From: an uncultured virus (IMG/VR IMGVR_UViG_3300027734_000063)
Taxonomy: Duplodnaviria; Heunggongvirae; Uroviricota; Caudoviricetes
IMG/VR virus record: IMGVR_UViG_3300027734_000063
Length of the DNA stretch: 64,000 nucleotides
Reading direction: 5' to 3' (one strand)
Shown: positions 881 to 63,942 of the stretch, in pieces
Layout: every line of letters starts with the position of its first letter
How positions within the stretch are numbered: the stretch's first letter is position 1
The notes under the pieces: generated by a model
Databases searched by the model: none
Told to the model about the DNA's origin: nothing
What the model saw: the letters and a program-made list of their open reading frames with translations, nothing else
Made by a program: the position numbers and the translations under genes

Positions 881-1243
881 ATGGGTTGGACAGGACAAAC
901 ACCGCCTTACCACAAGGACAAAAAGAAGTGGCTAGAAGACGAGTTTAGGCAAGTTGGCGAAGTTGGCACTAATCCGTCATTTGAATTGACTGATGTATCT
1001 GTTAAGGGTCGTGAAGCATATGGGATTCTTAACATTGTCAAAGCAGACGGCACGAAGACTGGTTTTGGCATGGTCATGCTACTGGAGTGCAGTGCAAAGG
1101 AATGGGCATTAAAAGAGATGTCGGAAGACATGATGCCTTTTTATTACAACGCACCGAAGAAGATGATTCACAAACTGGATAGTCTTTATCCTGCCCGAAA
1201 CGAAAATGCCCTGAATTGGCGAAAGAAGTGTCTATCAAACTGA
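881..1243 (+). CDS. hypothetical protein (DUF6927-like)
   Basis: GGAGG RBS; MGW start and KEMSEDMMPFYYNAP...WR motif (recall). Confidence 0.7.
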   Translation: MGWTGQTPPYHKDKKKWLEDEFRQVGEVGTNPSFELTDVSVKGREAYGILNIVKADGTKTGFGMVMLLECSAKEWALKEMSEDMMPFYYNAPKKMIHKLDSLYPARNENALNWRKKCLSN

Positions 1244-1313
1244 TGAGCCTGTAAGGGCGAAACCACCTGAATCACCTTAATTGAGTGAACGATGCAGTAA
1301 GGTGGTCTTTGAT
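1234..1313 (+). ncRNA. type I hammerhead ribozyme
   Basis: Stem I ATCAAA 1234-1239/TTTGAT 1308-1313; CTGATGA 1240-1246; stem II GCCT-GTAA-GGGC; GAAA 1259-1262; stem III ACCACCT 1262-1268/AGGTGGT 1300-1306; GUC site ending at C1307. Confidence 0.92.
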
Positions 1314-1332
1314 TAACTGCTAGGAGATTGAA

Positions 1333-1800
1333 ATGGGTTTAGATATGTATTTATCAGCAAAACGCTACTTGTGGTCTGACAAAGACAAAGCGATATCGGA
1401 ACAAGTAGGCGAGATTATCGGGGTTCAGGGCGATCAGGAAAGACGATTCAATGGTTCAAGTCTGGTCGTGAAAGAGATATCCCTTGAAGCTATGTATTGG
1501 AGGAAAGCCAATGCCATTCATGGATGGTTCGTGAATGTAGTGCAGGATGGGGAGGATAACTGCCGAGAATACGAGGTAGAAAGAAGCCAGTTGCAAACCC
1601 TGCATGATTTGTGCAAGGACATACTGGAACATCCTGATGCCGAAAGGGATGCAGACCTAGAGCCAACGCAAGGGTTTTTCTTTGGTTCGTATGAAAAAGA
1701 CGAATGGTATTACCAAGACCTGAAGAACACTGTAGAGGGTTTGGAAAGGGTTTTGGCACTACCTGACGAATACTCATTTAGCTATCAAGCCAGTTGGTAA
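1333..1800 (+). CDS. conserved phage hypothetical protein
   Basis: TAGGAG RBS; MGLDMYL...YWRKANAIHGWF...GFFFGS...YQASW motif family. Confidence 0.85.
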   Translation: MGLDMYLSAKRYLWSDKDKAISEQVGEIIGVQGDQERRFNGSSLVVKEISLEAMYWRKANAIHGWFVNVVQDGEDNCREYEVERSQLQTLHDLCKDILEHPDAERDADLEPTQGFFFGSYEKDEWYYQDLKNTVEGLERVLALPDEYSFSYQASW

Positions 1801-1811
1801 AGGGGATAACC

Positions 1812-2087
1812 ATGCAAAATATTTGCGAAGACGGATATCAGGGCAATCACGATCCTGCATCCAGTAATGACGAAGTGATTGAGATGACTACCGATTCTCT
1901 TGATGATGGTTCGGTAGTTGTCAATCTCGATGTATGGGATACCGATCAACAATGCGTAGTCAAGATGGGTGGCTATGTCATGGTCAAGCAGGACGATGAA
2001 GAGAAGAGATTTTATGTTCTTGTCTATAACGGCAAAGGGGATGTTCTATCACAAACCCTTGTGCCATTTGACTTTGTGGAGTGCTGA
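1812..2087 (+). CDS. hypothetical protein
   Basis: AGGGG RBS before ATG 1812; tightly packed in operon. Confidence 0.7.
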   Translation: MQNICEDGYQGNHDPASSNDEVIEMTTDSLDDGSVVVNLDVWDTDQQCVVKMGGYVMVKQDDEEKRFYVLVYNGKGDVLSQTLVPFDFVEC

Positions 2088-2088
2088 T

Positions 2089-2376
2089 ATGCCAAAGATA
2101 CTTATCAAAGCGTATGACACTGTTATCCAAAACGAATGGTATGAGGATGGTGCATCCGTCCTTATCGGAGTTGCGGATAGAGACGATCATCCTGAAGAAG
2201 CTTTTTGGGGATGGGCAGATGAAAAGATTTACTTCTACCTTGATCCCGAAGAAATGGCAAACCTGAAAGTGGGCGATGTTCTTAACGATGGCGAAGACTT
2301 CACCATTGTCGAGATTGATAAAGACAATCCCCATATTTACGAAGTTGAATATGAATTGGAGACTGACCATGCCTAA
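2089..2376 (+). CDS. hypothetical acidic protein
   Basis: GGAG upstream of ATG 2089; operon packing. Confidence 0.7.
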   Translation: MPKILIKAYDTVIQNEWYEDGASVLIGVADRDDHPEEAFWGWADEKIYFYLDPEEMANLKVGDVLNDGEDFTIVEIDKDNPHIYEVEYELETDHA

Positions 2377-2542
2377 ATGGAATGTGATGATGACCACTGC
2401 CCAGTATATCGAAGTGGAAGCAGATACTCCTGCCAAAGCAGAGATGCAGGGGCTAAAGATGTATCAAAGTTGCGAAGTGCGACCTGAGTATCCCCTGTTT
2501 GTATGTGAAGAAGCTGACCTAATTGAAGAGGAGCAAGAATGA
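2369..2542 (+). CDS. small protein, MPKx-V...VEA...A family (DpnD/PcfM-like)
   Basis: MPKWNVMMTTAQYIEVEADTPAKAE; GGAG RBS. Confidence 0.65.
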   Translation: MPKWNVMMTTAQYIEVEADTPAKAEMQGLKMYQSCEVRPEYPLFVCEEADLIEEEQE

Positions 2543-8657: not shown

Positions 8658-8774
8658 CAAAGAAAAACCCCCAGTTTTTTAGGCTGGGGGTTTAGGATCG
8701 TGTGTTGATCCGAGGGCTTGCATTGCACAAGTCTCTGCTAGGAGAAGTAATGTGCGTGTCAGAGTGGGCTGACC
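8658..8774 (-). ncRNA. candidate ~115-nt antisense sRNA
   Basis: Between extended -10 promoter (8780-8810) and terminator (8661-8693); stems GTCAG/CTGAC, GCACA/TGTGC, GGATC/GATCC; loop carries TTACTTCTCCTAGCAG. Confidence 0.6.
8661..8693 (-). terminator. intrinsic terminator
   Basis: AAACCCCCAG-CCTAAAAAA-CTGGGGGTTT followed by TTCTTT on minus strand. Confidence 0.8.
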
Positions 8775-14016: not shown

Positions 14017-14047
14017 AGGGGTAGCCTAAAAAACTACCCCTTTTTTT
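14017..14047 (+). terminator. intrinsic terminator between convergent genes
   Basis: GGGGTAG-CCTAAAAAA-CTACCCC-TTTTTTT. Confidence 0.8.
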
Positions 14048-17000
14048 ACAATCCAGCTTTGAGACGGAATCTAATAGTGTCTTGCAAAATCTCTTCTTTT
14101 TTACCTTTTAAGAAGTTGATTTCTTTGCGCTTTTCTTGAGCAGACATCTCTTTTTCTGGCAAGTCCTCAATCCTACGGATCTGACCAGTAATTGCATTAA
14201 GAGATGCGCCAGCTGACTGAGTAAATCCATTAGCCTGGATAAGACCTTTGTTAGCCTCAAACCACTTCTTACCTTGTGTTGGGTTCATGTTCTTCATCTC
14301 TGTCTTAAAGGTAGTCATAGCAACGTCAGAACGTGCTTTAAGGTCATAGAAAAGATCTTCCCTGCCACGAGGAACTTCTGGAGCTACAAACGAGCCATAG
14401 AGAGGATTGTTGCGTTCTTCCTTAGTTGGCTTATTGCTAGACAGAAGATCACTCATCCACATAGTTAAGCCAGCGACAGAGCCAAACAAGCCACGAGCTA
14501 AATGGTCAGCCTCAATTGGGCTAAGAATTCGTTTTTTGCTACCTTCTACAAGCTCACCCTTGTCATCTTTTTTGCCTGTAAATGGAACTTGGGTGGCAGC
14601 GCTTAACCATTTTCCTAACTGGGAGACATTGGCATTGTATTGTCTATAAGCTTCTAGGTGCTTCATGCTTTCAGGAACTACCTTACCGCCAGTAAAGAAG
14701 TTATGGTTGATACCAATCTCAACAAATGGCTTGAACACTGTTGGCACTGGACCAGAAGCCAGAGGTCCTAACAGGGCATCAATACCGCCATGTCTAAGAG
14801 CTTTCCAGAAGCGGGTTGCATCAACTTCATTCTTAGTGCCTTGGGTAATGATCCTGTTGTAAGTCATCTCAGGGATAGCTTTAACTAGGTATCCAGCAGT
14901 CGTTGTCAAAGGAATAAGCAATGAATGGTCATAGCCAATCTGTTTCATTAACTTTCTTGGGACAAAGAAGTTACGCATCTTGGTCTGGTCATCTAACCTT
15001 TGGTATTCCTCATCATCACCAATGGCAAACAGATACATCAGCATACCAATCTGCATACAGGCAATTGCCGTAGCTAAACGCTCAATAGCTTCTGTACGAG
15101 CTTGACCTTTTAGACCACCGCTAACGCTTTTTACTTTAGCACCTGTAGTCTTTTCTACCCCATAGGCAACAGGTTCTAGTAAAGCTTGGGACAGAACGTC
15201 AATCTGTTGGGCAAATGCGTTCATAAAGGAGATAGAGTGGGCTAAAGTCTGGGCAACTTTGGACGAACCCTTTTTATCCCAGTTAATCACATTGGCAGAA
15301 GCTAACAGGGCTTTACGCTGATCCCCTTTAGTTTCTTTCATTACACGCAGATAAGTAGCTCTGCGAGGAGCCATGTCGGAGGCATCGCCAATCTTCTCTA
15401 ACAAAGAAATAGTCTGTTGCAGCTTTGATCCATTTAACAAACCAATGGTTTGGTCGTAATACTGCATTGAAGTTCTAGAGCTGGAATAGATATTGCCAAT
15501 GCCATGCGCCTTAAGTATCTTCACTACTGGGTCATTGTTGTTTAAAGACTTAACGAAAGACCCAAATACCGAGCCATAAAAGCTTAATGGGTTTCTAACA
15601 CCAGTAACAAGGATGGTGCTTGGAATATCCATAAACAACTGTCTTAACTGGAATACTCCAGAGTAAGTAATGGTTCTACGCAGGGTCTGTGCGCCAAAGC
15701 CCATCAATCCCATTAAAGGAATGTTCATGCTTTCCATGCCAATCACGGCTTGAGCAATCAATGGATCTACGATGCGGATATTGATCTTGCGACCATTTAC
15801 CAGAATTTTGACGATGCCACGAGCAAAGTCTTCTTTTGGATAGACTTTAAGCTTACCTTTTTCATTGCGCTCACCATATTCAGATGCAATACGATTAGCA
15901 GCGTAGTTCTTAATGACGTTTCTAGAGGTCAAAACGACATGATTAACCATGTTGTCCAGGACATTGTTTAATGCCAACTCAACTTCACCTGGCTTAAATT
16001 TATGCTCCCTGGAGACGTTACGGACACCTTTAGCACCATAGAAGAATGTAGGCTTACTAGGATCTTGGCTAATATCTTCTGGTTGGATTCGCTGCCAAGG
16101 CACATAGTCATCAATCTTGCGATACATATCAGCAGTTTGTTTGCTAATAATCTTGCCAAACTCCATCATGTTGACCATGTTTCGGCTTACATCATTCCAA
16201 ATATCCATCATCTCTCTAAGAACAGGATATTTCTTTTCTAAAGCTATTAGATCGTCAATCTCAGTATCTTTAAGGTTAACTTTCTGACGAGCAATATCAA
16301 TGCCTTCAAAGTTTTCTTGGGCGTTTTGAATTGCAACTGTCAACGCCAACTGACGATCTGGAGGCAAGTCTGGGTCTAAAGCTTCTGTCTTTAATGTTTC
16401 AAGTTCACCTTGGCGCTTGAGGTATTCATTCACAATGCTGCGTGAACGCTTGGCTTCAAAGTAACCATTGATTACCCTAAAAGCGTGTTTAACACCTACT
16501 TCTTTGCCAAATTCATGGGCAAGCTGAATGATCTTACCAGTAGAGTTCTTGTCTTCTGTAGCTTTAAACATCTGATTAACTGGGTCAAATGCCAACTTGC
16601 CTAAAGTAACTACTTGAGTAGCAATGTGGTTAGCCTTTAACTGCTGGTCTGCTGCGATAGAAGCAACAGCACGACCTTCGCCATCTAACAGCTCTCTGTC
16701 ATATCTAACAGCATCTTCAGCTGCCAGACCTGCTGTAAAGTCAGTTGCTTTAACTCGGAATCCTAATGCCAGCTTGTCTATGCCAGTCACTGCACCAGGA
16801 ATCAGGTTTCTTGGGGATTCCAATATTCTGGTTTTGATGTTCTTAGCCGTTTGATAACCGCCCATGAGGTAGTCTTGGACAGTATTGTTGGTATGCACTG
16901 GAGGTTGCTCAACTCCAATCTTATCGAGCAATTTCACATCATCGGCAATATTGAACAACAACTCATTTGACGGACCTGTCATATCAAAGAAGTGCTTCAA

Positions 17001-20000
17001 GGATTCGTAATCCATCCTTGGTGTCTTGCCCTTCATCAAATCATCAAAGGTTTTGTATAGGATGTATTGATTGTCAAAGCCAAATAAAGATTTCATGCCT
17101 TCAAATAGCTTCTTAACCGCCAATACAAAACGATTCCAAGCAGTCCCCATCTTCATAGCCATGAGCTTCTCGGCATTAACCGCCCAGTAATCTGATGGGT
17201 TAGCGTATTGATAGAGGTTTAAATCTTTTACTAGCTCCCTTACTTTTTCGTAATTTGCCTTAGTTGGGTTAGCCATGTAATCATTGATGGCTTGGAAGTA
17301 ATCCTGAGAAGCAGGATCAGTATTGTTCTTAATAGCTTTTTTAGTTTCTTTTGCCCACTGCTGAACAATTAGCTTCCTGACCTGTGGGGTCATCATCTGT
17401 TCAAGAGTGTGGGTTAATTCGTGACGGGCAGTCTCTGGGTCAGTTACCCCTTCTGTTCCCTTATACAAACGAACTAAACGATCTAATGGGTTAAATGAAC
17501 CCGTTGCCCCTTCTTCCTTAGAAGTTGGTTTTCTAATTTGCAGTTTTAAACCAGTCAACAGAGCAGGAGAGTTATTCCACATCCAATGGATAACATTGAA
17601 TACGTCTTGGCTAATCTCGCCATCCCGTAAAGCTCTTTCAGCCCGTTGATGCACTGATAACGCATCTGGTGGGGTTTTATCTTTGATGGCTTCTAAGTTT
17701 TCTTCAAGCTCTTTGGTTCTTTCATCAATGAAAGTCATCTCACGCTGGGCATCAAGGGTTACTTCACCATTGATTATTTGACGTTTTAGCTTTCTTTCCT
17801 GTGCATTTAACTTACGCTGTTCAGCAATAATTTCATTTCTGACCCTGCTGTCAAAGATTTGTTTTGTAGTCTTCTTGCGAGGAACAATGTTTTCCAAAGG
17901 CTCTGGAGCAAAAAGCTTTTTGGCTCTTTCTTTATTGTCCTTGGTAACTAAAGTCTCTTGGCGCTTATTGAGGATGACATCAATAGCTTTTCTAGCTTCT
18001 TCTGCAGTTCCCCTGGCATACATAGTGCTGCCAGACTTGTAGAAGTCACCCAGAATGTCAGTCAGCCTTCTGTCTAGGAAGTATGTACCGCCTTCTTTCT
18101 TAGAGCTTGGGACGTTAAATTGGTATTGGTTTCCATAGCTAGACTTGGTAATCCGCAATATGCCATCTTCTGAAGTGATTGTTCCACCAATCTCATCAAG
18201 GAAACGCATGGCATTGTCAGCCGTTGCAATCTCTACAGGCGCATCTTTCTGTTCTTTGGCAAAGTCGTAGGCACGAGGCATCAAGATACCTTGACGTTCA
18301 TAGCCTTCGTTGTCTTTGAAGTTGGTAATCTGACCCTTGTTTTTAACCGCTGCAAAGCCAGCAAGGATGTTTCCAGTTACCATCCAACGCTTTTCACGTC
18401 TGATCTGTGAACCCATATCAAACTGTTTGATAACAGGAATGTCCTCAAACTGTTGAGTTTCGTAGTTAAAGGTATTGGTGCTTGATACAGTTTCTAACTT
18501 GTATTGCTTACCAATCTGTGAGAATGGCAAAGTAATTGACCTAGCATCACCATTAGCCAAGGCAAAAGTCATCTTCCAGTCAGTACCAGCAGCTGGGTTC
18601 TTGGTTTTGCCTACATTTTTAACATCAATGATTGCACCAGTTAAAGCCACACCTAACTCATTAGTAAGGGTGACAAACTTGCCAACTGTGTAAGTTCTTA
18701 AAATAGAATCAATATGGGTTTCCTGTAGGTTTAACTGACCCCTGACAGTAGATAAACGAACCTCATCTGATTTCTTTTCTACTTCTAGTTCTATTCTTTC
18801 GGCAGTATAAGCTCTCATCTTTGCTGTCAGAGCATCTCTTTGCTCCAAAGACAGCTGACCTGGAGATTTGCCATCCAAATTTTTCTTGGCAGCCTCAATA
18901 ACTTCTTCAGAACTCATTGGCTTAACAGTACGATCAGCCTCAATTAATTCCATAAATGCTGGTTGAGCAAATAATGAGTCACCTTTGTTCTCGGTAATTG
19001 GGGTAGAGCTTAATGTTTTTGCATTGATGTCCAGTGCTTTTGCTTCAAGCTTGTTAGTCCCCATGCTGATCTCACGATCTAGCAACTCTTTATATCGTTC
19101 TGTTAGGTCTTTGTAGAACTCTTCTTGCTCTTTAATAGGCAGGATAGGAATATAGCCAGTCAGCTTACGGACATCTTCTTCGGTAGCTTCGCTAGAGTTT
19201 TCTTTAACTGGGAACGCATTATCGCCACCCAAAGATTCATGCAAGTCTGGGTTATCAGCCAGCAACTCATTGGCTACCTGACCGCCATAGTCATTCATAA
19301 AGTCCACAGCACCTTCCGCAGTCACGGCAGACTTACGGGAAGCTGTAGTATTTGCGTTCAGTGATGCCATCTTTTTAAGCAAAATGGCAGCTGGGCGCAT
19401 CTCAGCAGGGATGTCAGCCATCATCTGTGAGTAAGCAGGAGGAATGATTTGACCAGTTCTGTGAACACGACCTAGCATCTGCATATGGGTATCAATGTTC
19501 TTTTCAGCCTGAACAATAATCATATGGCGTTTGCGTTGATCTTTAAAGTTCTCAGAGGCGTGTAAAGACAAGCCAGTAGAGCCAGCTTGATTCAAAATCA
19601 ATACGTCAAATTCACCACCATTAAACTTAGTAATAGCTTCGTACTTGGTTTTGGTAGTATTTTTAATAGCTTGCAGCGTAGGTATTGAAGCCTCTGTTGC
19701 ACCAGAGTAATTGATACCAATATTTCTACCTGTAATCTCGCCAGTTTTAAACCCAGCTTGACGTAACTTGTAGTGCATATAGTCAATTGGAGATACAGGA
19801 GCATCTTCAAATCCTGCGTTTTGAATGAATTTAACAATAGCGTTATAGGCAACAGTTAATTCAGGCCCAAGTTCCTCATCAGTTAAATCACGCACTTCTT
19901 TGTAAGATGGATTGCCATTCTTAGCTGGATACTTAATGGTGACTTGTCTTTGTTTCTTCAAATACTTTAGGTAAAGGTTTGAAAAATTCAGATTAATTGG

Positions 20001-23000
20001 ATCACCCTTTTTGAGTTCCATTTCATCTGAATAACTTTCAAGGAAAGAACCCATTGTGTTAGACACAGTAAGAACTACCTTTTCACCAGCTTTTAACCTT
20101 GATATTGCATGATCTACAGAGCTTTGGGCTTTCAAAGAAAGCAACATCTGGTCAATCAAGTTGTGCATTGTTGAGCCAAAATTGACTGTTTCAACATTGA
20201 CTCTATCTTTTTTCTTGGCTAATACCGCACCAGAAGTATCTAAACTTCCCGCTAATTTCTTACCAGCAATGCCTACAGCACGAGAAAAAGCCAGGATATC
20301 TCGCATTGAGGTAGCCATGTTCTCTGCTGTTTCTTTGTTTACTTTGGTTTCTTCAGTGTTATATGAAACCCCAGCAAAGGTGCGTTCTCTGCGAATGTAT
20401 TGACCAACCTTGGCAAGCATATTGGCAACAATCTGTTGCATTGGAATACCACCATTTTTGATGGCTTCAGCTAGGTCAGAGATCTTTTTAACCGCCAGCT
20501 TCATGTCTGTGCTGGCATACAAGTCCATGATGTCTGCACGTTTTGCATAGGTAGCAGATGAGAAGAATGAGCCATAGGCATCATTAACCAACATACGGAT
20601 GAACGAACCAATGTTTGGAGCAATAATCTCGCTGACTACTCCTTCTCCAAGATCTCCACCTTCTTGTTGACCTTCAGTTCCTTCTTTGCCAGCTACGCCA
20701 GCATTGTGGCTTTCGTCAAGGATAAGGTAGTTCTGATCGGCTAATGCTTGAACAAAGCGTTGACGTTCAGTAGCTTTACCTTTGACGTTCTGTAATTGCT
20801 TGTAAGTTGTAAAGATAACCTTGTAATTACCCAAATTACCTTGGGCTGCCAACTCTTTCATCTTGGCATTTTGTTTAGGTCTATCTGTAGAGAATGGCTC
20901 TAAAGTTAATTCTTTCTCTACCTTTTCTCCATTAACAGTTCTAACTAACTTGTAAGGAACTTTCTGATCTACGTTGGTCATAAAGATCTTAGGATCAGTA
21001 GTATCCAATGCAAGCTCTTTAGTCATGCCAATATCATCCAAGTCACGGATCATATCGGAGAACAGATTAGGGAATTGCGTTACAAAAATAGGAATACGAT
21101 CATTTTTCAATGCGTATTTAATCATTGCAGCCACTACACGACCTTTACCAACACCAGTTTGATCGCCAATAATGAAACCTTGACCAGCATCTGCGTTGAA
21201 AATAGACAGTGCTAAAGAGTCAATTTGCTCGGCTGAAAAGTTATTAAACAGTTCATCCTTAGTAAACTTAAGCTCTTTTGATACATATTCATCAATGTCA
21301 CCAACTTGCGCTTCAACTTTGTCCAGGGATTCCCTAATGGATTGAGCCATACCACCTGGTACAAGCGTACCAACAGAGTTAGCTTTTGACTTAGGTTGAT
21401 AAGGAACTTGACCTTCGGTAACTTCTTCCTTGCCTCTACGATCATTTAGTCGAGACTGGATGCGTTCTCCACTGACAACGCTAGTTCCACCCACTCCTCC
21501 AGGCTTGTTTCCTTCAGCGCCTTTTCCGCTAGGGGGTTGCTTTGGCTTACCTGCGCTGGGAACGGTACTTCCCTCTGGAGCATTGTCAGGTTTGTTAGCA
21601 GGTTTAGGTTGTTTTTCACCAGTACCTGCCCCAGTTGATTCGGGTCTTCCACTGATGCCAGCCCCATTTGTTGGCACATTTGGTTTGCCAGCTCCTGTGG
21701 ATTGTTGCTCTCCTCCACTAGGTCTACTAGCCTGTCCGCTAGGGCTTCCAGCCACATTTTCCTGGTTAGCTCCCCCTGGGGTACGTTTACCGATGTTAGT
21801 CCCACTGGGGCTGACATTTGCTCTGGATACCATGCTGGCATTTAATTTCTCCTTGAGTTCTTCATAAGAATTGATTTGTTGTGGCAATTCCGCAGCTGGC
21901 AATGCTCTTTCTGCTTTGCCATCCCCATTAATCACAATAACATCTACAGGGTAACTAGCTCCCTGTTTGGTATACATATCACCAGACACTGAAAAATGAT
22001 CTACTACGTTGTATTTGTCGTATAAATTAACAAAGAAGTTTCGTTTCGCAGCTGAACGATAACCTTCTTTTCTAGCATCTTCGCCTTCAGCCCGAACACC
22101 GCCAATTATTAAGACAGCCTTACCACTTGGTTTCATGTTCTGCAAAGACTTCATTACGATTGCATGGTCTATTTCTCTGGTTTTAAACCCATCAATATCA
22201 AAGTTTTCACCAGTAGAGCCAAACGGAGGATTCTCAATAACAACGTCTACTAAAGTTGCTTCTTGCTTTAAAGCATTACCAACAGTAACTTCAGCTTTAG
22301 GGAAAACCCTTTTAAGCATTTCAGCACGGCTAGAGTTCAGCTCGTTAACTATAACAATGTTAGGGTTGGCTGCAATCAAAAGCATCCCGTTACCAGCAGT
22401 TGGCTCATAAACAGTGGTATTTTGGTTGATTCCAGCTAATTGGCTGGCAACATACGCTAACGGAGCTGGGGTAGAGTAAGCCTGTTCTCTAACGCTGGTA
22501 GAGGAACGAACCGCCAAGTTAGGCTGTCTGTTGTACAAGTCTACTAATCTGTCATACGCCTCTGTAGGTGACTTGGAATTCTGAGAAATCTCTTGCGCAG
22601 CCAATACGATACCAACTTCTACCGCCTCATCAGCTTGTTTGGCTTGCATGGTGGCAGCTTCAATCTTCTCACCAGTCAACTCAGAGATAAATTTACGAGC
22701 TTCAACAATGGTGCTGAACGCATTACCTTCTAAGAAATGGTCAGCTAATACCAAAGCAATGTTGTATTTGCCATCTGGAGTGGTTAAATCTAACTTGCCA
22801 GCAGGTTTAGCTTCTTCAACTTCAATTTCTTCTATTGCCTTAACACCAGCCACTTCAGCAATTGGTGTAGCTTTATCTGGATAGTTGCCAGACATAGCAA
22901 TATAAGCACCTTGAAGGTGGTTTAGATTAATTTTGTCTGATACATCTTTACCAAAAGCTTGTTTAATAAGGTCACGAACAAATTTGGCGGCTTTCTTAAA

Positions 23001-25097
23001 GGTGTGATAACCCTTACGGAAAGCAGCATCCATAAGCTTAATAAGGGTAGGCATGAGGCGTTGTTCATCCTCAGGCATCATATTCATACGGGTATTTTTA
23101 CTAGCCATCCAAGATAGCTCACCCAAAGCATCCATCAAGTCTTTATCGGCTTGTGCTTCTGGAGATAGGGCTTCTCCAGTAGCTTCTGGCGCTACAGTAG
23201 GAACAGTTTCCCCTTGTGCTTCTGCACGTTGAGCAGCTTGTCTATCACGATTATTTTGAGCTATTTCTTCTGGTGTTAGTGGAGGAGGTGCTGCCCAAGT
23301 TACTTTATCGCCTTGGTCTTCTTCTACAAGCTTATCAATAGCTTGTTGGGCATCTTCAGCTGTAACTTCTCCCGCAAATTCGCCATTCTTAACTTGGTCA
23401 AATATAGAAGGCTTTTCTTCAGAAGGAGCTTCTTCTGGTGCTTCTTGGTTATATGGAGCAGCTTTTTCAGCTTCAGATTGAGCAAACTCAATAGCTTTTT
23501 GTTTGCCTTCTTGATCCCCAAACTTGTCTGTTGGGAATGTTGTTGCAGAAACCATTTGGTTGGCATCATTGTCAAACAATACAGCCGTCCAGCCATTGTC
23601 ATTTTTAACAATACGATATTCTGTGTTCTCACCCATATCAATGGGAGGAATAGTTTCAGCTGGGGGAGCAACAGACTCAGTGGTCTGTTCACTCATCTTA
23701 TCCAGTAAAAGACCAAGTGTTTGCTGTGGCTCTTTTGCTGGAGTAATGCCATATTCTTTAGCTATCTTATTTAACTCTTTAGTGTTTGGTTCGCCAGTTG
23801 CTTCTGCTTTGGCAGCCCAATCATTTATTTTTGTTTCTAAATCGCTTGTTGCAACAGGTGCTACTACTGCAACAGGTGTTGCTGATGGTGGCGCATTAGG
23901 TGGGACAAAAGTTTCTAGATCACTTTCGTCTACCAAACCAGAAGGAGGGGCAGAAGGGGCATTAGGAGCTGGAACAACGGCTGGTGGGGCAGGAGGGGGG
24001 GAGGGGGGTACTTGTTCAGCTTCTGCTTTCTTACTCTTATAAGTTGCAGCTGCTTCTGCTGGAGCGCCAAATACTTCACCAATAGCTTCTTCTAATACAG
24101 CTCTAGGATTAACAGGCTGGTTGCTTGCATAAGATCCTAATCCCTCACCAGCAGCGCCTAAAGAAGCTTGCTTTGGTATTTCTTTGGCAACATCTTTGAC
24201 TGTTTCTTTCCAAACTTTGGTAGCTGTATTGTCAAATATCTTTTCAGCAATTTTGCCAGCTGACCTTAAAGAAGCTGCATCAAACATACCAATGATTGAT
24301 GACTTAACCATTGCCTTGTTATTGGCTTCTTCGTGGTTAAAACCTCTTTCTCTTAATTCAACGTACTGTTGACCATATTCCATCATTGCAGAAGAGCCAC
24401 CGCCAACAATTAAACCGCCTGTTGGACCAGCTGCCATACCAAATCTGGCAGCTACAGCCATAGCAATAGACTGTGGAAGACTACTTAGACCTACGTTGGC
24501 AATATAAGAAGGTAACTCATCAATGTTCTTAAGATATTCTTTGCCAATCATTCCAGCCTGTTGCCATTCAGTAGCTTTTTTAAACTCTGGCTTTTGTTCT
24601 AAAGCATCAATCTTTTTGGATAATGGGTCTTTGCCATACTTTTGTTCAATGGCTTTGACATCTTCTCCAGACTGCGCTAAATAACTTAAATTCTCACTAG
24701 CCTTCTTAACTGTATTAAGAATGTCTGATTTTTCTTTTTCTGGAGCATTTTCAAAGTTTTGCCCATACTTTCTTTTGTTAGCTTCAATTAACTCTAATTG
24801 AGAAGATAACTGCCACTGGGTAGGAACATTAGATAATGATTTAATTCCTTTAGCCAAAGAACCAATAGATGGGGTTGGTTCATTTGCCAGGTTAGATCCT
24901 GGCATGATGGCATCAATTGGACCAAATATTGATCTTTGTAATACGTCAGCTACTTTGGTAGAACCAGCCACAGGAGCAACATTTGCTTGTGGCGCATTAG
25001 GCATAATTTGAGTTTTAATGACATTAGATATCTCATCAGAAGACATCGTGTCAGGAAACTCAACTACGCCAACATATGGTATGTTGACTGACGGCAT
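14046..25097 (-). CDS. 3683-aa DarB-like large polyvalent protein: N6-adenine methyltransferase, Strawberry-notch SF2 helicase, HExxH region, LPD38-like C-terminus
   Basis: YEPTAGNG and IENPPFG (MTase); GDQTGVGKGR, LILDESH, SSATYAK, AGSTGLSLHA, QMLGRVHRTGQ (helicase); RHELTH; last gene of late operon. Confidence 0.88.
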   Translation of the reverse strand: MPSVNIPYVGVVEFPDTMSSDEISNVIKTQIMPNAPQANVAPVAGSTKVADVLQRSIFGPIDAIMPGSNLANEPTPSIGSLAKGIKSLSNVPTQWQLSSQLELIEANKRKYGQNFENAPEKEKSDILNTVKKASENLSYLAQSGEDVKAIEQKYGKDPLSKKIDALEQKPEFKKATEWQQAGMIGKEYLKNIDELPSYIANVGLSSLPQSIAMAVAARFGMAAGPTGGLIVGGGSSAMMEYGQQYVELRERGFNHEEANNKAMVKSSIIGMFDAASLRSAGKIAEKIFDNTATKVWKETVKDVAKEIPKQASLGAAGEGLGSYASNQPVNPRAVLEEAIGEVFGAPAEAAATYKSKKAEAEQVPPSPPPAPPAVVPAPNAPSAPPSGLVDESDLETFVPPNAPPSATPVAVVAPVATSDLETKINDWAAKAEATGEPNTKELNKIAKEYGITPAKEPQQTLGLLLDKMSEQTTESVAPPAETIPPIDMGENTEYRIVKNDNGWTAVLFDNDANQMVSATTFPTDKFGDQEGKQKAIEFAQSEAEKAAPYNQEAPEEAPSEEKPSIFDQVKNGEFAGEVTAEDAQQAIDKLVEEDQGDKVTWAAPPPLTPEEIAQNNRDRQAAQRAEAQGETVPTVAPEATGEALSPEAQADKDLMDALGELSWMASKNTRMNMMPEDEQRLMPTLIKLMDAAFRKGYHTFKKAAKFVRDLIKQAFGKDVSDKINLNHLQGAYIAMSGNYPDKATPIAEVAGVKAIEEIEVEEAKPAGKLDLTTPDGKYNIALVLADHFLEGNAFSTIVEARKFISELTGEKIEAATMQAKQADEAVEVGIVLAAQEISQNSKSPTEAYDRLVDLYNRQPNLAVRSSTSVREQAYSTPAPLAYVASQLAGINQNTTVYEPTAGNGMLLIAANPNIVIVNELNSSRAEMLKRVFPKAEVTVGNALKQEATLVDVVIENPPFGSTGENFDIDGFKTREIDHAIVMKSLQNMKPSGKAVLIIGGVRAEGEDARKEGYRSAAKRNFFVNLYDKYNVVDHFSVSGDMYTKQGASYPVDVIVINGDGKAERALPAAELPQQINSYEELKEKLNASMVSRANVSPSGTNIGKRTPGGANQENVAGSPSGQASRPSGGEQQSTGAGKPNVPTNGAGISGRPESTGAGTGEKQPKPANKPDNAPEGSTVPSAGKPKQPPSGKGAEGNKPGGVGGTSVVSGERIQSRLNDRRGKEEVTEGQVPYQPKSKANSVGTLVPGGMAQSIRESLDKVEAQVGDIDEYVSKELKFTKDELFNNFSAEQIDSLALSIFNADAGQGFIIGDQTGVGKGRVVAAMIKYALKNDRIPIFVTQFPNLFSDMIRDLDDIGMTKELALDTTDPKIFMTNVDQKVPYKLVRTVNGEKVEKELTLEPFSTDRPKQNAKMKELAAQGNLGNYKVIFTTYKQLQNVKGKATERQRFVQALADQNYLILDESHNAGVAGKEGTEGQQEGGDLGEGVVSEIIAPNIGSFIRMLVNDAYGSFFSSATYAKRADIMDLYASTDMKLAVKKISDLAEAIKNGGIPMQQIVANMLAKVGQYIRRERTFAGVSYNTEETKVNKETAENMATSMRDILAFSRAVGIAGKKLAGSLDTSGAVLAKKKDRVNVETVNFGSTMHNLIDQMLLSLKAQSSVDHAISRLKAGEKVVLTVSNTMGSFLESYSDEMELKKGDPINLNFSNLYLKYLKKQRQVTIKYPAKNGNPSYKEVRDLTDEELGPELTVAYNAIVKFIQNAGFEDAPVSPIDYMHYKLRQAGFKTGEITGRNIGINYSGATEASIPTLQAIKNTTKTKYEAITKFNGGEFDVLILNQAGSTGLSLHASENFKDQRKRHMIIVQAEKNIDTHMQMLGRVHRTGQIIPPAYSQMMADIPAEMRPAAILLKKMASLNANTTASRKSAVTAEGAVDFMNDYGGQVANELLADNPDLHESLGGDNAFPVKENSSEATEEDVRKLTGYIPILPIKEQEEFYKDLTERYKELLDREISMGTNKLEAKALDINAKTLSSTPITENKGDSLFAQPAFMELIEADRTVKPMSSEEVIEAAKKNLDGKSPGQLSLEQRDALTAKMRAYTAERIELEVEKKSDEVRLSTVRGQLNLQETHIDSILRTYTVGKFVTLTNELGVALTGAIIDVKNVGKTKNPAAGTDWKMTFALANGDARSITLPFSQIGKQYKLETVSSTNTFNYETQQFEDIPVIKQFDMGSQIRREKRWMVTGNILAGFAAVKNKGQITNFKDNEGYERQGILMPRAYDFAKEQKDAPVEIATADNAMRFLDEIGGTITSEDGILRITKSSYGNQYQFNVPSSKKEGGTYFLDRRLTDILGDFYKSGSTMYARGTAEEARKAIDVILNKRQETLVTKDNKERAKKLFAPEPLENIVPRKKTTKQIFDSRVRNEIIAEQRKLNAQERKLKRQIINGEVTLDAQREMTFIDERTKELEENLEAIKDKTPPDALSVHQRAERALRDGEISQDVFNVIHWMWNNSPALLTGLKLQIRKPTSKEEGATGSFNPLDRLVRLYKGTEGVTDPETARHELTHTLEQMMTPQVRKLIVQQWAKETKKAIKNNTDPASQDYFQAINDYMANPTKANYEKVRELVKDLNLYQYANPSDYWAVNAEKLMAMKMGTAWNRFVLAVKKLFEGMKSLFGFDNQYILYKTFDDLMKGKTPRMDYESLKHFFDMTGPSNELLFNIADDVKLLDKIGVEQPPVHTNNTVQDYLMGGYQTAKNIKTRILESPRNLIPGAVTGIDKLALGFRVKATDFTAGLAAEDAVRYDRELLDGEGRAVASIAADQQLKANHIATQVVTLGKLAFDPVNQMFKATEDKNSTGKIIQLAHEFGKEVGVKHAFRVINGYFEAKRSRSIVNEYLKRQGELETLKTEALDPDLPPDRQLALTVAIQNAQENFEGIDIARQKVNLKDTEIDDLIALEKKYPVLREMMDIWNDVSRNMVNMMEFGKIISKQTADMYRKIDDYVPWQRIQPEDISQDPSKPTFFYGAKGVRNVSREHKFKPGEVELALNNVLDNMVNHVVLTSRNVIKNYAANRIASEYGERNEKGKLKVYPKEDFARGIVKILVNGRKINIRIVDPLIAQAVIGMESMNIPLMGLMGFGAQTLRRTITYSGVFQLRQLFMDIPSTILVTGVRNPLSFYGSVFGSFVKSLNNNDPVVKILKAHGIGNIYSSSRTSMQYYDQTIGLLNGSKLQQTISLLEKIGDASDMAPRRATYLRVMKETKGDQRKALLASANVINWDKKGSSKVAQTLAHSISFMNAFAQQIDVLSQALLEPVAYGVEKTTGAKVKSVSGGLKGQARTEAIERLATAIACMQIGMLMYLFAIGDDEEYQRLDDQTKMRNFFVPRKLMKQIGYDHSLLIPLTTTAGYLVKAIPEMTYNRIITQGTKNEVDATRFWKALRHGGIDALLGPLASGPVPTVFKPFVEIGINHNFFTGGKVVPESMKHLEAYRQYNANVSQLGKWLSAATQVPFTGKKDDKGELVEGSKKRILSPIEADHLARGLFGSVAGLTMWMSDLLSSNKPTKEERNNPLYGSFVAPEVPRGREDLFYDLKARSDVAMTTFKTEMKNMNPTQGKKWFEANKGLIQANGFTQSAGASLNAITGQIRRIEDLPEKEMSAQEKRKEINFLKGKKEEILQDTIRFRLKAGL
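21446..21841 (-). CDS. overprinted 131-aa protein inside the giant gene
   Basis: AAGGAG 7 nt before ATG; amphipathic helical sequence while the host frame is a G/P/S-rich linker. Confidence 0.65.
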   Translation of the reverse strand: MPAWYPEQMSAPVGLTSVNVPQGELTRKMWLEALADRLVDLVEESNNPQELANQMCQQMGLASVEDPNQLGQVLVKNNLNLLTNLTMLQREVPFPAQVSQSNPLAEKALKETSLEEWVELALSVENASSLD

Positions 25098-63857: not shown

Positions 63858-63898
63858 TTGACAGTCAATAAATCTATGCTTGACAATGAAATTGTCAA
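63858..63898 (+). promoter_or_regulatory. putative early promoter overlapped by two palindromes
   Basis: AT-rich upstream tract, TTGACA-18-GACAAT; TTGAC-A-GTCAA and TTGACAAT-GAA-ATTGTCAA. Confidence 0.55.
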
Positions 63899-63942
63899 TC
63901 ACCTGATGACTTGTTAATTAACCACCTGCTAGGAGTTTACTA

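Follow-up and report, generated by a model that had tools for sequence, protein, structure and literature searches.

Why should a self-cleaving RNA motif lie between two small genes of a phage, and take the stop codon of the first of them into its own catalytic core? The question is raised by an uncultured virus of the Caudoviricetes (IMG/VR record IMGVR_UViG_3300027734_000063), of which a stretch of 64,000 nucleotides, hereafter called the window, has been analysed. In this aquatic tailed phage, a canonical type I hammerhead occupies positions 1234-1313, where one small gene gives way to the next. A first-pass annotation had described this hammerhead, had proposed that it processes the early multi-gene message, and had suggested that ribosomes terminating on the core might gate the cut.

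The hammerhead and its genomic setting

Stem I of the hammerhead is open-ended, which makes the arrangement type I, and stems I, II and III comprise 6, 4 and 7 bp, respectively, the fourth pair of stem II being U-G (Table 1). The locus displays the CUGANGA and GAAA core of type I hammerheads together with the A15.1-U16.1 pair, and GUC 1305-1307 provides a cleavage triplet of the NUH type. In the core numbering, which runs from C3 to C17, we take 1240-1246 to be C3-A9, and 1259-1262 to be G12, A13, A14 and A15.1. Hammerheads cut directly 3' of the GUC, leaving one product with a 2',3'-cyclic phosphate and the other with a 5'-OH. Sequence, descriptor scan and stem covariation agree on the full core and the three paired stems read at this site by the first-pass annotation. 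The upstream TGA lies inside the core as it had claimed, ORF 881-1243 ending at TGA 1241-1243, and the leader layout is also retained, 1308-1332 being 25 nt long with AGGAG six bases ahead of the ATG of gene 1333-1800. The same account omitted the 31-nt insert in stem III, which is the one unusual feature of an otherwise ordinary motif.

Table 1. Coordinates of the hammerhead, its flanking genes and the carriers of the class A insert
Feature	Position	Strand	Remark or basis
Upstream gene, 120 aa, phrog_21047	881-1243	+	ORF
Stem I, 5' strand	1234-1239	+	ATCAAA; 5' edge of the spacer cassette
Catalytic core CTGATGA (CUGAUGA)	1240-1246	+	contains stop codon TGA 1241-1243
Stem II, 4 bp	1247-1258	+	GCCT 1247-1250 / GGGC 1255-1258, loop GTAA (GUAA tetraloop)
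Core GAAA	1259-1262	+	sequence
Stem III, 7 bp including the A-U pair	1262-1268 / 1300-1306	+	encloses the loop III insert
Loop III insert, 31 nt, class B	1269-1299	+	weak hairpin, then ACGAUGCAGU segment
GUC triplet and predicted cut C1307/U1308	1305-1308	+	place in consensus
Stem I, 3' strand	1308-1313	+	TTTGAT; would begin the downstream product
Unpaired U, position 1.7	1314	+	putative tertiary partner of A1254
Shared leader AACTGCTAGGAG	1315-1332	+	Shine-Dalgarno AGGAG 1322-1326
Downstream gene, 155 aa, phrog_7971	1333-1800	+	ORF
Class A insert carriers	L019:1776-1836, L052, L098, L117, L118, L162, L241, L285, L288		

A descriptor scan over both strands of the 64 kb returned a single match, 1234-1313. 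None of 200 dinucleotide shuffles gave a match with equally long stems, and a looser descriptor found 0.085 matches per shuffle. The family model scores 1234-1313 at 53 bits, but this sequence belonged to the training set. Comparison with Rfam had been proposed as a check of the hammerhead. No match reached the gathering score, either for the window or for 20 loci and a further 7; below that score the window gave weak matches to Hammerhead_3 (RF00008, 24.2 bits, E 0.024, cut-off 48.5) and RAGATH-1-hammerhead (RF03152, 18.8 bits, E 4.1, cut-off 56.3). Two further candidates in the window were rejected. A family-model match at 16278-16314 (14.4 bits, E 0.12) lacks stem III and is attributed to chance. 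A second ribozyme considered at 609-760 was negative with both the descriptor and the family model; this region holds a 54-aa ORF (609-773), with four cysteines in two pairs, which is conserved in locus L001. At the junction of this ORF, L003 has a hammerhead instead.

The minimum free energy fold of 1234-1313 is the hammerhead, weakly so (-18.2 kcal/mol, z -1.06), and that of 1225-1335 is the hammerhead as well (z -0.45). When the segment is extended to 1200-1335, positions 1208-1212 pair with stem II and the ribozyme is broken, a pairing that is not conserved in L093 as judged by eye; in 1234-1345, the beginning of the downstream gene displaces stem I. Folding programs disregard tertiary contacts and folding order, and on these models the ends chosen for a construct may determine the outcome of a cleavage experiment. 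For the leader left by the predicted cut, the folding energy is only -2.3 kcal/mol (z 0.11), so that the ribosome-binding site would be nearly open.

The minus strand of the window encodes a terminase, a portal and a capsid protein, a helicase, a primase, a Sak-like annealing protein and an exonuclease, which identifies a tailed phage. It also carries, at 14046-25097, an ORF of 3683 aa that resembles a DNA methyltransferase around residues 870-970. On the plus strand, small genes follow one another from the first position to about 5190; their size, strand and position suggest that they are early genes. No terminator-like site was found on the plus strand within 1-2600, and neither a promoter-like nor a terminator-like site at the junction 1234-1332. 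A BLAST search against 50,697 GenBank phage records gave no match, the record nearest to the window lacks this region, and none of the six pattern matches in bacterial genomes that came out of the host search is a hammerhead. The terminase is nearest to those of 023Pt_psg01, HTVC027P and DSL-LC04, but a likeness of 56-58% is too distant for a host call. A word-based scan for relatives of the upstream protein confirmed none of eight candidates; a homologue in L093 surfaced later.

Covariation within the family

The hammerhead family was started from 80 loci gathered with the protein of the downstream gene 1333-1800. On these loci the descriptor gave 32 rows, 30 of them type I hammerheads in the orientation of the genes; loose rows in L044 and L045 were discarded. 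A search of 65 of the 80 loci with a family model, built from the aligned members described below, yielded 33 matches, every one of them on the gene strand. A pattern search aimed at the 3' end of the cassette (see below) retrieved at least 138 stretches, and a loose hammerhead pattern matched in 108 of 230 loci, some of these matches being due to chance. Up to three hammerheads are found within 2.5 kb in the relatives L026, L102 and L153, and one in the window.

Thirty-seven members, 36 of them distinct, were aligned. Of the 493 stem cells, 99.6% are paired, and double changes occur in 12 of the 14 stem pairs; none of 500 shuffles was as good, and slid controls were 34-44% paired. The core bases C, U, G, A, G and A are invariant in these aligned members. 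A tertiary pair can be added to the stems, between the last base of loop II and the first base past stem I (position 1.7), which are A1254 and U1314 in the window. This pair, first spotted by eye on a nearly identical set of sequences and counted afterwards, can be formed by 34 of the 39 distinct sequences (U-A 21, A-U 10, G-C 2, G-U 1; unpaired 5). It shows 13 double changes, its score is reached by none of 500 shuffles, and slid controls were 26-54% paired. All these counts overstate independence, because the members are related and were collected with patterns containing parts of the consensus and of the leader.

With this proviso, the covariation supports a contact between A1254 and U1314, in the window as in its relatives, and hence selection for an active ribozyme. 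Taken together, the covarying stems and tertiary pair, the invariant core and the restriction of the matches to the coding strand indicate selection on the RNA. The covarying loop II-1.7 pair (A-U, U-A, G-C) constitutes in itself a small structural addition.

Variants have also been noticed among the wider set of loci. The core is altered in L095, L109, L111, L143 and L147, either by U4C or by C3U together with G8A, and both types of variant have been described (PMC3088659). One or two additional bases lie between A9 and stem II in L084/L013, L087, L102, L133, L144 and L241.

A spacer cassette, the stop codon and the stem III inserts

The hammerhead, AACTGCTAGGAG and a start codon form a cassette that recurs between unrelated small genes of related phages. 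Of the 30 type I hammerheads, 27 are directly followed by CTGCTAGGAG and a start codon. The CTGCTAGGAG leader is also found behind a spacer motif that is not a hammerhead, and is specific neither to gene 1333-1800 nor to hammerheads. Two exact copies on the plus strand of the window, at 8735-8744 and 63926-63935, each stand ahead of an ATG without a hammerhead; the second one comes just after a promoter-like site (63858-63887) pointing into a similar small gene. When one mismatch is allowed, CTGCTAGGAG is not enriched in the window (5 occurrences vs 3.67 expected).

The neighbours of the cassette are indeed not constant. Record G006 matches window 1233-2400 with 100% identity and 482-875 with 92%, and two different genes replace 876-1232, the swap boundary being 1233. 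The last of the replacing genes is not homologous to ORF 881-1243 (E 4.4), and ends at the core TGA too. L093 combines an 82% identical upstream gene, whose end likewise lies in a hammerhead core, with a hammerhead devoid of insert and a different downstream gene. L016 and L001 share the same gene pair, but the spacer of L016 consists of two hairpins, with the same leader. Directly 5' of the downstream gene, a hammerhead is present in 5 of 80 loci and the two-hairpin spacer in 25 as counted by eye (22 of which are matched by a pattern for it), and the remaining 50 have neither spacer within the 160 bases examined. Gene 1333-1800 does not need a hammerhead, since so few loci have one directly before it. 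More generally, the variation of the spacer across loci implies that neither the gene nor the leader is dependent on the hammerhead, and that the ribozyme is not bound to a gene. By analogy with the PeSL cassettes of T4-type phages, a crossover would take place within the shared cassette sequence.

The two-hairpin spacer lies before homologues of 1333-1800 in L002 (2427-2483), L007 (2420-2478), L016 and about 22 further loci. Three of its 15 predicted pairs show double changes, and Rfam gave no match at the gathering score, the weak osmY match having an E-value of 0.16. Possible identities are a nuclease site, a protective structure and a novel ribozyme.

How closely is the upstream stop codon tied to the catalytic core? 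The stop offset, defined as the distance from C3 to the base on which the upstream stop codon ends and taken from ORF lists, was compared at 24 of the 50-plus distinct junctions, namely those of loci with several hammerheads and of the carriers of the class B insert; the L120b junction was omitted because no ORF is listed at the edge of that locus. The stop lies inside the core at 9 of the 24 junctions, and 1-9 bases before it at 11. One of the other genes reads through and ends in loop II, one case is ambiguous, and two junctions, both in L026, have their stops 19 and 38 bases away. All in all, the stop falls within -9 to +14 of C3 at 21 of the 24 junctions. At 17 of the 24, the upstream gene has the core TGA in its reading frame, often right after TAG TCA AAC, and the simplest reading is that this TGA serves as a back-up stop. 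Ser-Asn, encoded by stem I, ends several unrelated proteins, and the last codons of ORF 881-1243, TCA AAC TGA, come from stem I and the core.

Different carriers of a ribozyme with the same 31-nt insert have stop offsets of +3, -6 and -9. In L016, where the hammerhead is missing, the orthologue of the L001 gene is two codons shorter; when L002 is compared by eye with L027, the orthologue without hammerhead ends later. Judging from these sequences, the stop overlap is real but optional, and is most readily explained as a side effect of cassettes lying directly against the ends of genes. The suggestion that ribosomes gate the ribozyme through the core TGA is weakened by the small number of junctions with a stop in the core and by the offsets that vary among carriers of the same ribozyme.

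The inserts constitute a second variable element of the cassette. Loop III counts 3-6 nt in most family members, vs 31 nt in the window. Four classes of insert have been distinguished at stem III, and their longer forms repeat a short motif two or three times. The 31-nt class B insert is identical in 9 other loci; these comprise three stem sets, and their ribozymes are preceded by five different genes and followed by several. The gene junction of the window is known with the insert (window) and without it (L093). Folded alone, the window insert is weak (z -0.59). A longer class B form is found in L007-type loci, with one compensatory pair, 25 additional nucleotides between two TGAGT repeats and GANGCA present twice; the window insert may be a deletion product of this longer form, generated between the TGAGT repeats.

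In class A inserts, a symmetric internal loop has GAGWCCGCAAA on each of its strands, and the helices covary. Among nine aligned members the motif is intact at both sites in eight, one copy being off by one base in L117, and 8 of the 10 flanking pairs show double changes. L241 carries a class A insert in a divergent hammerhead that lacks the shared leader. L133 and L285 resemble the empty and the filled version of one ribozyme. The class C insert (L018:895-1015) is a long rod containing TTAGAAGCAAA twice, and class D (L006:207-323) consists of three hairpins with CGAA loops. No insert class matched Rfam at the gathering score.

The doubled class A motif has 59 viral matches, 21 in hammerheads and 38 outside; those of the outside matches that were aligned resemble chance or coding repeats. 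Similarly, 5 of the 12 matches to the class B motif are located outside hammerheads and are chance-like, L411 being a false match. A 5-bp pairing between GCAGU of the insert and ACUGC of the leader was also discarded: about 0.2 such pairings are expected by chance (hand estimate), and it is absent from the other insert classes. Titles, abstract beginnings and passages of the literature contained no description of a stop-codon overlap or of repeated-motif stem III inserts in phage hammerheads; Dataset S1 of PMC3088659, or the supplement of PMC5737381, a survey of 224 motifs, may contain such sequences.

Proposed role and relation to known systems

We favour, with moderate confidence, a constitutive cut after C1307, which would punctuate the message and generate a uniform 5'-OH leader, the upstream piece keeping its stop codon and 3' hairpins. 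According to this model, the cassette would be placed flush against the end of any small upstream gene, and the core TGA would be the stop codon only where the cassette has replaced the gene's own stop. Cleavage of the multi-gene message by the ribozyme, probably constitutive, would provide the downstream piece with a standard 25-nt leader that starts with a 5'-OH and leaves the ribosome-binding site almost free of structure. It is proposed that such a standard open leader would render downstream translation and stability independent of the upstream gene. The upstream piece would end in two hairpins, the insert remaining at its 3' end. The cassettes would also act as crossover points for gene swaps, because of the sequence shared among them. 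We infer cleavage, co-transcription, the effects on stability and translation, and recombination within the cassette.

The direction of the effect on RNA stability depends on the host. In hosts that possess RNase J, the RNA downstream of such a cut may be destabilised. Cleavage by glmS can destabilise the downstream RNA (PMC6765202), and synthetic hammerhead insulators are described as standardising the 5' leader and raising stability (PMC7536230). Hammerheads arranged in tandem in prophages cleave both in vitro and in E. coli, and it was proposed in 2011 that such cuts divide long transcripts into gene-length pieces (Perreault et al., PMC3088659); a 2019 review called the purpose of phage hammerheads unresolved (PMC6765202). 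Message processing, as put forward in the first-pass annotation, is supported by the genomic context and by the literature on other phage hammerheads, but the idea that the core TGA has been selected for gating finds no support. Several points speak against the punctuation model: the active fold is not dominant in naked RNA, few loci have a hammerhead directly before the downstream gene, the window contains one copy instead of a cluster, and the stem III inserts are left unexplained.

The first of these observations would suit a translation-coupled switch, which we consider unlikely. Terminating ribosomes would unfold stem I and the core, cutting would occur mainly when upstream translation is low, and message processing would be linked to the translation state. 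Stem I is indeed a weak A/U-rich helix of 6 bp and the fold is marginal; the stops cluster around C3, and the core TGA is mostly in frame. The footprint of a terminating ribosome would presumably cover stem I or the core at the 21 junctions of this cluster. An AU-rich synthetic insulator containing an ORF was moreover inactive in cells (a passage of PMC7536230). Yet dense gene packing by itself brings stops close to spacers, the core holds the stop at a minority of the junctions, the L026 stops are remote, and one ribozyme tolerates three offsets among its carriers. The orthologues devoid of hammerhead end earlier or later, which fits a plain replacement of the gene end.

The inserts themselves might be the working part, an idea that we regard as rather improbable. 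Stem III would then be a natural plug-in site for RNA modules binding a protein of host or phage or a small molecule such as a metabolite, and these would control cleavage or, at the 3' end of the upstream piece, be released as decoys or act as protective elements. Decoy targets could be a host RNA-binding or defence protein, and the window insert would be the shortest module; these extensions are equally doubtful. The occurrence of four insert classes within one ribozyme family argues for such a function, as do the conservation of the class A motif amid covarying flanks and its presence in the divergent L241, the identity of class B over three stem sets and five upstream genes, and the repeats of TTAGAAGCAAA in class C and of CGAA-loop hairpins in class D. 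Most members nevertheless have a plain loop III of 3-6 nt and the L093 junction is insert-free; the window insert is weakly folded, with one compensatory pair, and possibly a deletion product, and recent recombination could explain the identity of class B across phages. Phage decoy RNAs have a precedent in RNA anti-CRISPRs (PMC10651486), which is not evidence for the window insert. We give very little credence to the last reading: the cassette would be retained chiefly for recombination or hitch-hiking, cutting being tolerated, slow or irrelevant. The swap boundary at the cassette edge, the Sak-like annealing protein and exonuclease encoded by the phage, and the absence of a hammerhead at the junction of the window in most relatives are consistent with it, and repeated cassettes are described as shuffling genes in T4-type phages (PMC2839356). 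Recombination, however, needs shared sequence rather than covarying pairs, yet both the stems and the tertiary pair covary, the core is invariant and 33 of 33 matches lie on the coding strand.

Constitutive punctuation and ribosome gating can be compared directly, since the family supplies natural controls: one ribozyme is found behind different genes, one junction exists with and without the ribozyme or the insert, and several stop offsets are available. Should the inserts bind something, the family would offer either a hammerhead controlled in nature or a phage decoy RNA of a new kind.

The phage hammerhead at 1234-1313 belongs to a kind known since 2011. Like the clustered hammerheads of Perreault et al. 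(PMC3088659), it has a canonical core, is intergenic, lies on the coding strand with changing neighbours, and would cut shortly before a start codon. Unlike them, it is present as a single copy in the window; no pseudoknot was found in it, one loop II-1.7 pair occurring instead. Its fixed leader is common with a non-ribozyme spacer, and long loop III inserts are absent from the passages of that paper that were compared. Hammerhead_3 (RF00008) corresponds to the type III permutation, whereas 1234-1313 is type I. The core, stem III and type I layout of RAGATH-1-hammerhead (RF03152) can be aligned with it, but the 5' part aligns poorly, the 5' hairpin and A-rich linker being absent at 1234-1313 because coding sequence runs into stem I.

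At the level of the cassette, the PeSL elements of T4-type phages (PMC2839356) are similarly short repeated spacers associated with small non-essential genes and with swaps at their edges; as described there, PeSL is composed of a promoter and a terminator, whereas 1234-1332 shows no sigma-70 promoter or terminator hairpin. The RiboJ-type insulators (PMC7536230) share with the cassette a hammerhead cut that would yield a uniform 5' leader ahead of the ribosome-binding site. The phage version differs in being natural, in lying between genes instead of after a promoter, and in having no extra hairpin past the cut. The closest structural parallel to the tertiary pair is the AL4:U1.7 contact, described for fast minimal hammerheads (O'Rourke et al., as cited in PMC11875169), although U1.7 was not essential in the constructs of the citing paper itself. 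The window hammerhead resembles the minimal ribozyme in its GNRA tetraloop, its 4-bp stem II and its unpaired U seven bases past the cut, but in the relatives the A-U combination (10 of 39) is switched to U-A in 21 and to G-C in 2.
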